From Klebsiella phage RCIP0040: a stretch of 50,973 nucleotides of DNA. The notes under the pieces were generated by a model. That model searched no databases. It was not told the DNA's origin and saw only the letters and a program-made list of their open reading frames with translations. The stretch lies in sequence record OR532834.1; one strand, 5' to 3'. Positions within the stretch are counted from its first letter, which is position 1. The number at the start of each line of letters is the position of its first letter. Below, one piece after another: positions 19,682 through 22,405 of the stretch. The translations under genes and the position numbers were made by a program.

Positions 19682-22405
19682 TTAGCTACTCATAAATCCA
19701 TTTGCTTTCAAAGATGCAAGTAGTGAGTTTATAACCTCGTTCACTCCAGCTACATCTGTAGCTGAACTCGCAGGTATTGATGGCATTTTCGTTGTATTAT
19801 CACCAACTCTAAATCTATCAATAGCTACCGAGTATGGCGGTTCGAATTGCCCATATCTACCTAAGTCATTGTATACAGCATATATTTTAAGGAAGAACCT
19901 TTTATTATATGCAAAACCAGACATGAAGTGCGATCTAAGTGAGCCAGTGTAATTGGCACTGTTAACAAATCCATATCTTATTTTCTTCGCACCTGTCGGA
20001 ACATCAAACCTAACGAATCCACTTATCGGGAACGTTGAGTTAAAACTTTGAGGCGAATACCAGTTTGATGACAAAACAGACCCACTGGCATCAAGCGCCT
20101 GAATTATAAACCTCCCATCACCTGAGTTTGCATAAGTCGTTTGAATGAATATGTATTTAATTTCATCCAAGGCGTTTGATTCTGTTACTGATCCTCCAAA
20201 CTCAGAAACAGAAAACTCATTGTATAGATGCATAGGTGTAAGCGGTTCGTTATGGTTGCTTAGATAATTAAGCCTGAAACCGTTGTTCAAGTCAGTTGAA
20301 CTATACATTGCTCCATTGCTCCACATTATTCTTGTGTGAGGAACATTTGAACCAGTGCTTGGTATTAGCCCTATAATTTGTGATGTTTCATTGTGAATAA
20401 GAGATGAAACATCAAGTTTATTTGACATGTTATCAAATGCGACGCTGTTTATCCCAAGCTGCGAGTTAACAAGCCTTGGGTGTATTACTCCAGATATTCT
20501 GTTTGTTGCCAATCCATTAGCATCCCACACGTTATATTTTAATGCCTCGTCTGGAGTGAACCCACCAATCTCATAATTATATGTGTTATTCATGAGTTTT
20601 ATTGTAGATAGCGTATTGATTTTGAATATGTGCGGGCTATCTATTTTAAAACCAAGGCATGACGACACAACTATTGCAGCGCCAGAAATATCCTTTAAGT
20701 AATTTGACTCAATAGTATCAATATTATCAGCCGTTATTGCTGTTCCGTCAGTTGTGAAGCCATTAATGTCCTCTAGATCAGTGCCGTAAATTATGAATGA
20801 ATTACATTGTGTTATAGTTGCTAGTGATGTATTGCGTGGGCTCCCATGTCCTGATAACTGACCGCCAATGTACTGAACGTTGCTTAATCCTTGGAAATAA
20901 GCCTGGCAACCAACATCATTAACACTATCCATTACTTTGATATATTCATTTTTAGTTGTCTTATATGTCGCACCAAGAGCAAAACTGGTTGGCCCATTCC
21001 CGTTGCAAATTGTGTTGAAAAAATGTACTGGTGCGCTATGTCCATATTGCTGTCCTTCTTTAAAAGACTCAATGAATATACCTTGAAAATAGTTTGATTG
21101 CGCCCTGCAACTATGAAATTCAATCTGATTGATACATTCAGGTTCGCCAACATAGAAACCCCATCTGAACGTGTCTACATAGACGTGCTCCAATACTAAT
21201 TTCCTATTGTCTCCTACGCTTCTATCAAAGTTTATCCCCTTCCCTAAATATGAGTTAGAAAAGCAATTTATGCTTGATATTCTCCCCATAGAACATCCAC
21301 TTATGTTCATGAATGCGTCAGTTTTCGGGTTAGCCTTGTTTGATGGGTTGTGATAAAAAACAGTCCCAGGACGGCCTTCGATATGGATTGGCCCTGTTAT
21401 TCTTAATGTATCTGAACTTTCAAAATAGTATGTTCCTGTGCTAAGATTTAATTTGAAAGATTTACTAATTGCAAGATTGAAAGCGGCTTGCATCATTGCT
21501 GTGTTATCAAAAAGTTCAGCAGGTAAAACGTTAAAGTTTGGTGGTGGTGTTGCAGTAGTTTTACAACCAAAATCCTCGGCTGTAAATGAATTATTATTTA
21601 CCACTCGTGTCCAATAGTACCCAGGGCCAGCAGCGATATACCCACCATCGTCAGTGGCCGTTCCTATGCTACTGATAAACTCACCACCGCCTGTTGGCAT
21701 TTTATTTTCCGCCGCCCAACCATCATAATACGATGTAAGCAGAACATGCTGACCAGACTTTTTAGGTTTCAAGTTACGTAGAGCAGCAAATGAACTGACG
21801 CGACCGATGGAGTCAAATCCGTCAGGTTGCGCCAAAACAACCAGCGTTGATTGATCTCCAGCGTTGTCAATGATCTGCTGAATTTGGTCTCTTGTAGTCT
21901 CCGCTGCAACCTCTGAATTTTTTGCCGCATTTTCAGAAGATTTTGCGTTATCCTCTGAAGTTTTTGCCTTACTTTCAGACGCAGCCGCAGCCGCAGCGCT
22001 TGATTCCGAAGCTTCGGAGTCTGCCTTAATTTGGTTAGCAAGATTTTGCAGCGATTCGAAATCGAACTCCTTAAAGAACTCGACTGCATCCGCAATTACG
22101 GTTTCCTGTGACTGATAGTAGCGAAGAGTTTCAGCAACATCTTGCGCCAGTCCGTCAACGGTAAGCGAGTCGCTTAACAGGATCGCGTAGTCAGTAGACG
22201 CTACGACAGCGCCGTTTGTGGTAATTGCTTTAATTTCCGTGTCACTGACTACCTTGTTTACGACGGCCATTTGAATCGGTGACGACAAAAACATAATCGT
22301 CGCACCAGGGCGAATCAGCGAAAGCGATGATTGCCATTTAGTGCCAGTCCCGGTAACGGTTCCGTCTGCGGCCATAGCCGCTTTGCCTTCTCTGTATAGT
22401 GCCAT
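19682..22405 (-). CDS. tailspike / side tail fibre with beta-helix (pectate-lyase-like) depolymerase-type C-terminal domain
   Basis: 907 aa. N-terminal ~220 aa is GC-normal with an Ala/Ser/Glu-rich linker. The remaining ~690 aa are encoded by markedly AT-rich DNA and are rich in N/G/S/T repeats typical of right-handed beta-helix polysaccharide depolymerases. Confidence 0.7.

Follow-up and report, generated by a model that had tools for sequence, protein, structure and literature searches.

The K2-specific capsule depolymerases of the weberviruses, which have been described as 'Group 3' together with their conserved N-terminus (PMC12023860), include Depo32 (gp32) of phage GH-K3, DpK2 of phage RAD2 and B1dep, and their specificity for the K2 capsule has been published (PMC10581125, PMC8552709, PMC8003838). 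The active centre of Depo32 was assigned by mutagenesis to an inter-subunit cleft and comprises E423, E545 and D546, together with D497 (PMC10581125). DpK2 frees oligosaccharides of two and three repeat units from the K2 capsule, as a hydrolase would (PMC8552709), and B1dep, which acts on the same capsule (PMC8003838), remains fully protective in mice after deletion of its first 200 residues but loses its activity when the last 250 are removed (PMC13405766). The more general architecture, an anchor joined to an exchangeable enzyme, has been published for KP36virus group A along with horizontal transfer of the enzymatic part (PMC6872550, PMC8262889). Here, we compare with these systems the tailspike gene of Klebsiella phage RCIP0040 (sequence record OR532834.1), analysed over a stretch of 50,973 nucleotides (nt) that is referred to as the window and whose positions are used throughout. 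The gene lies at 19682–22405 on the minus strand. Its product is very probably the side tailspike of a Klebsiella webervirus, a recombinant in which the genus-wide anchor has been joined to a self-contained K2-capsule hydrolase module.

Identity of the Tailspike

In a megablast search against 50,697 phage records, 273 records matched, 269 of which are Klebsiella phages, and those with a taxonomy line are assigned to Drexlerviridae; Webervirus. A first-pass annotation made from the letters of the window alone had guessed at a webervirus, which proved right. The entire gene is present in 25 of the 273 records at 95.7–100% identity, including GH-K1, LF20, B1, GH-K3, RAD2, BMac and MMBB, with K2 strains (K7, 52145, B5055) given as hosts of carrier phages. 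A sequence search of the PDB returned full-length matches to 7VYV, 7VZ3 and 7LZJ (residues 1–907, 2016–2034 bits), all of them named "Depolymerase". No residue of the protein differs from the GH-K1 depolymerase, and two differ from B1dep. Depo32 (7VYV/7VZ3) has the same 907 amino acids in length, the same domain order and the same residues E423, D497, E545 and D546; it is encoded in the same slot between the gene of a single-stranded-DNA-binding protein and the convergent central tail fibre gene, but differs by seven substitutions (M304R, T323A, Q453E, N597K, Q649R, I681T and K873Q) and in a surrounding backbone that is only ~85% identical. DpK2 (7LZJ), a trimeric β-helix K2 hydrolase, shows 16 amino acid differences (~98% identity).

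Besides the four catalytic carboxylates, the acidic cluster D399, D543, D619 and E620 is retained in full in the window protein, and E423, D497, D543, E545 and D546 are invariant in an alignment of eight sequences of the family. Both the full-length identity and the catalytic residues place the protein within the webervirus K2 depolymerase group (Depo32/DpK2/B1dep). The comparison with depolymerases of other phages that had been proposed earlier therefore ends at known K2 enzymes, 0–16 residues away, and the anticipated capsule type can be specified as K2 from the published near-identical enzymes and the host fields of the carriers. These data support the assignment of the window protein as a predicted K2-specific capsule hydrolase, i.e. 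an already known protein in a known architecture.

No family was recovered in a Pfam scan of the protein at E ≤ 0.1, including Peptidase_S74 and any pectate-lyase profile. Precomputed hits from a large protein search name PF27114 (Phage_tail_beta), which the local Pfam scan did not return. Membership of the pectate lyase superfamily as an enzyme class finds no counterpart in a Pfam profile match, and the published chemistry is hydrolytic, so that only the β-helix fold is common to both. The earlier label "pectate-lyase-fold" can accordingly be kept for the fold and has to be dropped for the enzyme class, the published enzyme being a glycoside hydrolase and not a lyase.

Domain Layout

The gene and its parts are listed below; the domain limits follow the Depo32 structure (PMC10581125) and are given here in window coordinates. 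GC denotes guanine-plus-cytosine content and GC3 its value at third codon positions.

19682..22405, minus strand: tailspike/capsule depolymerase gene, encoding the receptor-binding protein, 907 amino acids plus TAA stop, recognised by its open reading frame (ORF) and near-identity to characterised enzymes
21818..22405, minus strand: conserved N-terminal virion anchor and helical bundle, residues 1–196, 48.6% GC, common to the whole genus (273 records match)
19685..21817, minus strand: exchangeable K2-specific module, residues 197–907, 39.0% GC, GC3 ~0.32, found in 25 weberviruses but lacking in the remaining 248
[quoted passage not shown]
20480..21592, minus strand: right-handed parallel β-helix catalytic domain, residues 272–642, from structure and mutagenesis (PMC10581125)
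21137–21139, 20915–20917, 20771–20773 and 20768–20770, minus strand: catalytic carboxylates E423, D497, E545 and D546, respectively, confirmed by translation
19685..20479, minus strand: connection helix (residues 643–666), jelly-roll carbohydrate-binding module (667–846) and C-terminal three-helix bundle (847–907) (PMC10581125)

PHROG tail-fibre families match residues 1–176. The anchor and the helical bundle up to residue 185 are not resolved in the cryo-electron microscopy maps of Depo32 and DpK2 (PMC10581125, PMC8552709), and the stretch that had been read as an Ala/Ser/Glu/Lys-rich "flexible linker" is a triple-helical bundle (PMC8552709, PMC10581125). Residues 182–281 match PDB entry 6TGF, which was deposited as an exopolysaccharide biosynthesis protein. 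For the β-helix, a start at residue 317 instead (317–642) has also been given (PMC8552709). With 98–99% identity to the solved structures, the protein is expected to adopt the trimeric fold of β-helix, carbohydrate-binding module and helix bundle. The first-pass annotation had predicted a β-helix for residues ~230–907; this holds for residues 272–642 according to 7VYV, 7VZ3 and 7LZJ, but the C-terminal 265 residues are not β-helical.

In such a layout, the anchor and helical bundle (residues 1–196) would fix the trimer to the tail tip, while residues 197–907 would constitute a self-contained K2-capsule hydrolase with its active site in the cleft between adjacent subunits (E423, D497, E545 and D546). 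The trimer would then bind the K2 capsule and cut the polymer into repeat-unit oligomers, which would allow the virion to reach a secondary receptor and would restrict the phage to K2 (KL2) strains. Published work on near-identical proteins has demonstrated the structure, the specificity for K2, the activity as a hydrolase and the autonomous function of the module. Composition, junctions, the pattern of identities and the conservation of catalytic residues come from the present analysis; an AT-rich donor and the mechanism of recombination are inferred.

The locus also conforms to the architecture of KP36virus group A, with the genus-wide anchor in its slot and the same synteny in 17 annotated loci. 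The autocleavable C-terminal chaperone domain of the KP36gp50 type is absent, as there is no Peptidase_S74 hit and the three-helix bundle is retained (PMC10581125). Since this domain is optional in the published scheme, membership of the group A architecture stands. KP36gp50 itself is K63-specific, has a module of 48.8% GC and shares only nt 1–~590 with the window gene, which, compared to the KP36-type scheme, comes without a separate downstream gene for a chaperone or a second receptor-binding protein.

Module Exchange and Cassette Edges

When seven K2 carriers are compared with the window segment by segment, their nucleotide identities are as follows:

Upstream 4 kilobases (kb): 84.3–91.3%
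Anchor: 83.5–100%, with 83.5% in PSKP16 and RCIP0001
Module: 98.5–100%
Body of the central tail fibre gene: 88–93%
Last (C-terminal) 900 nt of this gene: ~80% at partial coverage

A near-identical module (19572–21817, its own terminator included) on divergent flanks is direct evidence of horizontal spread. The proposal of a horizontally swapped module on a conserved anchor is thereby supported: 248 of the 273 records share the anchor only, and where the module is 98.5–100% identical its flanks are at 84–91%. GH-K1 shares the tailspike gene with the window at 100% identity, and its flanks are 91–93% identical; by genes, the flanks reach 91% in GH-K1 and 85% in B1, and at the C-terminal end of the central tail fibre gene both phages have an identity of only ~80%. 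The window backbone is closest to Kpph1 (97.0% over 24.5 kb) and is 96–97% identical to phages with other tailspikes, for example K6PH25C3, LAPAZ, Call and KA1-2. Over the 24.5 kb compared (22500–47000), none of the records in the phage collection is identical to the window, which probably stems from a distinct webervirus isolate.

For a closer view of the junctions, the locus was taken from 24 weberviruses, of which 17 were aligned across positions 14000–27000. The 273 records share the 5' ~450–590 nt of the gene, and 248 of them share only nt 1 to ~587. In ten non-K2 phages, homology of 84–90% runs unbroken from the upstream replication and recombination genes into the tailspike gene and then ends. 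This end lies at 21819 ± 4 in seven genomes (RCIP0097, KP1801, KP36, K14PH164C1, RCIP0019, HZJ32 and K64PH164C4) and sooner, at 21887–21954, in five (PKP126, Sushi, MezzoGao, KPN N141 and Skenny). Position 21819 falls in codon 196 (…VVLAQPDG|FDSIGRV…), within the neck helix directly after the helical bundle. The junction is therefore located at residues 196/197 (positions 21818/21817), with alternative junctions at residues ~130–170. An anchor/module boundary had been noticed before, but was placed at ~21750, and the actual junction is ~70 nt upstream.

Mismatch maps reveal two patterns within the K2 set. PSKP16 and RCIP0001 are strongly divergent over nt 240–600 of the gene and almost identical thereafter; RAD2 and K2PH164C1 are divergent only over nt 240–400. 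Hence, at least two junctions exist among the K2 carriers (nt ~400 and nt ~570–600), both in bundle-coding DNA. The anchor of DpK2 has 94.4% nucleotide identity to that of the window, and the confinement of its divergence to nt 240–400 points toward a recombination junction in RAD2 different from that in the window.

Three hairpins are located around the tailspike gene:

22466..22489, minus strand: terminator-like hairpin after the upstream gene of the single-stranded-DNA-binding protein, found by terminator scan, 5' edge of the tailspike transcription unit
19596..19621, minus strand: intrinsic terminator hairpin of the cassette, AAAACCCCGCttcgGCGGGGTTTTTT, read in the sequence, travels with the K2 module
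19510..19533, no strand assigned: shared bidirectional terminator hairpin AAAAGGGGCCGAATGGCCCCTTTT between the convergent tailspike and central tail fibre genes, found by terminator scan, 3' edge of the variable region

KP36, Sushi and Skenny have an annotated terminator at the position equivalent to the first of these. No σ70-like promoter was found directly upstream of the tailspike gene. At the other end, homology between K2 carriers extends 110 nt beyond the stop codon, to 19572, which means that the cassette possesses its own terminator AAAACCCCGCttcgGCGGGGTTTTTT. In HZJ32, RCIP0019 and RCIP0079, downstream homology resumes at 19532/19533, i.e. at the edge of hairpin AAAAGGGGCCGAATGGCCCCTTTT, and in other phages it picks up deeper within the central tail fibre gene. 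The module and its terminator (about 19572–21817) have moved from one webervirus backbone to another, probably through homologous recombination that used the conserved bundle-coding DNA on one side and the shared downstream terminator region on the other.

The space between the tailspike and central tail fibre genes is a hotspot of gene gain and loss. In the window, it consists of 174 nt with two terminators and no extra genes. Other weberviruses harbor additional small genes here, for example ORFs of 56, 92 and 251 amino acids, and some carry a pair of genes for a membrane protein and an outer-membrane protein on the other strand. Such extra genes are found in the locus records L002 (8129–8299), L006 (7868–8146), L008 (7471–8226), L009 (7529–8502) and L016 (7824–9190).

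The central tail fibre gene itself (15809..19507, plus strand; J-like) contains a second variable segment in its C-terminal ~900 nt (18250–19507). This segment is ~80% identical (partial coverage) to other K2 carriers, yet 94% identical to PKP126 and 93% to HZJ32. It includes an indel at 18463–18610 relative to GH-K1, and its GC falls to 43–48%. Because the fibre tip resembles that of PKP126 and HZJ32 and not that of the K2 carriers, tailspike and fibre tip differ in their history in this genome.

Base Composition of the Module

Among the 2-kb stretches of the window, the 3' part of the tailspike gene is the richest in AT. Its AT-richness had been estimated by eye at about 37% GC over ~2.07 kb, and the calculation came close: this part (19682–21750, 2.07 kb) has 38.7% GC, and the sliding profile is far from uniform, with values of ~0.36–0.41 over 19450–21700 and of 0.46–0.56 farther out on either side. 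The 5' part (21751–22405), taken by the first-pass annotation as genome-typical, is indeed near the GC of the window but slightly below it (48.2% versus 50.6%). Fewer than 1% of all 2069-nt windows are equally AT-rich; every one of them overlaps the tailspike gene, and the minimum begins at 19531. GC3 declines from ~0.5 over codons 1–100 to 0.25–0.37 past codon 200. With a GC3 of 0.36, the tailspike gene ranks lowest among 35 long ORFs of the window (the next has 0.46), which also served as proxy genes for the codon usage of the backbone. A model with two GC segments outperforms uniform GC by 13.9 log-likelihood units. Its change point for total GC is nt 805, i.e. codon 269 (position 21601), with a flat likelihood profile over nt 450–800, and the change point for GC3 lies at codon 119. 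The compositional observation made in the first reading of this DNA was thus real.

A rival explanation would be that the AT-richness is a by-product of the residues favoured in a β-helix and carbohydrate-binding protein (Asn, Ser, Thr, Ile, Phe, Tyr and Lys, with AT-rich codons), without any foreign origin. In fact, S, G, N, I, T and F are over-represented in the module, with 10.7% S, 9.0% G, 8.9% N and 7.0% T (background levels: N 4.7%, S 6.1%, T 5.3%); S, N, I, T and F exceed the backbone, and GC at first and second codon positions also drops after residue ~250. Earlier talk of N/G/S/T-rich repeats therefore holds for the enrichment in these residues, though sequence repeats are lacking. 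However, if the amino acids of the module are re-encoded with backbone codon usage, 49.9% GC is predicted versus 39.0% observed, at 52.4% for background genes. Hence, amino acid composition accounts for ~2.5 of 13 GC points, and the remaining ~11 are synonymous. The fall in GC3 from ~0.5 to ~0.32 also runs counter to a compositional cause, as do most other webervirus modules, which are assumed to be β-helical as well and have 45–51% GC, and a homologue from a jumbo phage whose protein is 63.5% identical at 46% GC (see below). Composition as the sole explanation of the GC drop is largely refuted by these data and must be considered very improbable; as the cause of the drop, it was rejected by the re-encoding test.

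Across 15 webervirus module types, GC ranges from 0.39 to 0.51, with the K2 module at the lower end, followed by those of KP1801 (0.42) and K64PH164C4 (0.43); most others have 0.45–0.51. AT-richness as a general trait of webervirus tailspike modules was rejected on the basis of this spread.

Alternatively, the module could be native to the weberviruses, its AT-rich codons being kept by selection, for instance for slow translation during co-translational folding and trimerisation or for tuning of expression, and its near-identity being due to purifying selection. This idea would fit an AT bias that begins within the anchor, at codon ~119, an anchor that is itself 5 points under the expected GC (48.6% versus 53.9% calculated from its amino acids with backbone codon usage), and the lack of a donor. 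Nevertheless, purifying selection cannot hold synonymous sites at 98.5–100% identity beside genes that have diverged to 84–91%, the same module resides on anchors that differ by 16%, and AT-richness is not seen in the sister modules that occupy this genomic slot. A native module under selection is thus the least probable of the explanations considered, marginally behind the compositional one. The preferred reading remains that of an imported module on the genus-wide anchor, and the AT-biased synonymous sites suggest that the module probably came into the genus from a gene pool richer in AT, without amelioration since then.

Relatives outside the Genus and the Question of a Donor

A DNA search at distant sensitivity returned only the 25 weberviruses and one jumbo phage at 63%. 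At the protein level, tblastn likewise uncovered a single long relative, the tail protein gp229 of phage vB_kp_MJ359 (PQ182779; 300 kb), with 63.5% amino acid identity over residues 203–907. Domain order and catalytic residues are the same in gp229 (as judged via its near-identical relative P0003), but its N-terminus of ~300 residues is unrelated, its GC is 46%, and its gene belongs to a cluster of tailspike genes. Many tailspikes of jumbo, Erwinia and Serratia phages match no more than the connection domain, i.e. the first ~150–220 residues of the module. Only ten relatives emerged from a search of 5.8 billion proteins: the webervirus cluster (P0001, 99%), two jumbo-phage types (64%), P0004–P0008 (40–46%) and the weaker, partial matches P0009 and P0010. 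IMG/VR contributed a further four copies, which are 99% identical and without exception lie on webervirus backbones.

Some of the more distant homologues (40–46% identity) could be traced to podovirus-like contigs, where the module again has a different N-terminus and the gene follows a T7-type terminase in one case and a gene of T7-tail-fibre type in another. The traced contigs have 37–50% GC. Among them, a podovirus-like contig of 38% GC encodes a homologue of 40% identity, together with a terminase that shares ~50% identity with its counterparts in Acinetobacter and Alcaligenes phages. The module family hence crosses phage morphotypes and includes AT-rich backgrounds. As a donor, the homologue in the 38%-GC contig is ruled out, being too distant (40% identical). 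The jumbo-phage homologues are ruled out as a source of the AT bias by their 46–50% GC.

The jumbo-phage homologues (vB_kp_MJ359, locus record L004, 1–17856; L023, 5344–17957) are situated in arrays of at least six tailspike or tail-fibre genes, several of which have Phage_tail_beta hits. Such multi-depolymerase clusters could be reservoirs for module exchange.

Several findings speak against the picture of an imported K2 hydrolase module and have to be set beside the evidence for it. The composition shifts gradually and starts upstream of the homology junction, so that the AT bias is not cleanly limited to the swapped part. No donor was found, none of the 5.8 billion proteins falls between 64% and 99% identity, and the closest homologues outside the weberviruses, at 46–50% GC, are less AT-rich than the module. 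On the enzymatic side, the window protein has Q453 where Depo32 has E453, and an E453Q mutation reduced the activity of Depo32 five-fold (PMC10581125); the active B1dep likewise has Q453. Moreover, enzyme activity of this exact sequence is presumed from its identity with published proteins.

In view of the above, we tentatively suggest, as a possibility that is itself rather doubtful, that the K2 module is a recent import from an unsampled AT-rich phage lineage (~37–40% GC) that possibly infects a different, AT-rich host genus. In that case, the un-ameliorated synonymous sites and the near-clonal sequence (98.5–100%) on divergent backbones would be the trace of a single recent capture across lineages, and the spread of K2 hypervirulent Klebsiella would have driven the sweep that came after it. 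If true, the compositional signature could act as a clock or marker of such captures.

Relevance

In practice, the analysis is of use for annotation: the label of a K2 (KL2)-specific webervirus can be given to the window, and its tailspike equals enzymes that are already under development, or have been developed, to counter the virulence of hypervirulent K. pneumoniae. Gene and architecture were known before, the understanding of these proteins is unchanged, and the modular swap is the textbook way by which weberviruses change their host range. Small additions are the cassette boundaries at the nucleotide level, including the 3' edge between the module's own terminator and the shared bidirectional one, the mostly synonymous nature of the AT bias, and its specificity for the K2 module among 15 webervirus module types. 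GC content is not mentioned in PMC8552709, PMC12023860, PMC6872550 and PMC8262889; hence, as far as a non-exhaustive literature search goes, the details of base composition and the precise edges of the cassette may be a minor addition.

Other AT-Rich Sites in the Window

A non-coding gap of ~490 nt (24770–25256) separates an exonuclease VIII-like gene (23714..24769, minus strand) from a primase-like gene (25257..26219, minus strand) and contains the most AT-rich 500 nt of the window (30–34% GC). It harbors a 33-nt direct repeat (24845–24877 and 25108–25140, 97% identical) and ten copies of ATCTTAC in both orientations. This iteron- or operator-like arrangement could be a replication origin or a cluster of regulator-binding sites. 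In the entire window, ATCTTAC occurs 19 times versus 4.1 expected, a number reached in none of 100 shuffles. Beyond the cluster at 24870–25234, four copies lie in the AT-rich stretch 41904–42174 and two at 8534–8590, and ATCTTAC may represent a shared regulatory motif.

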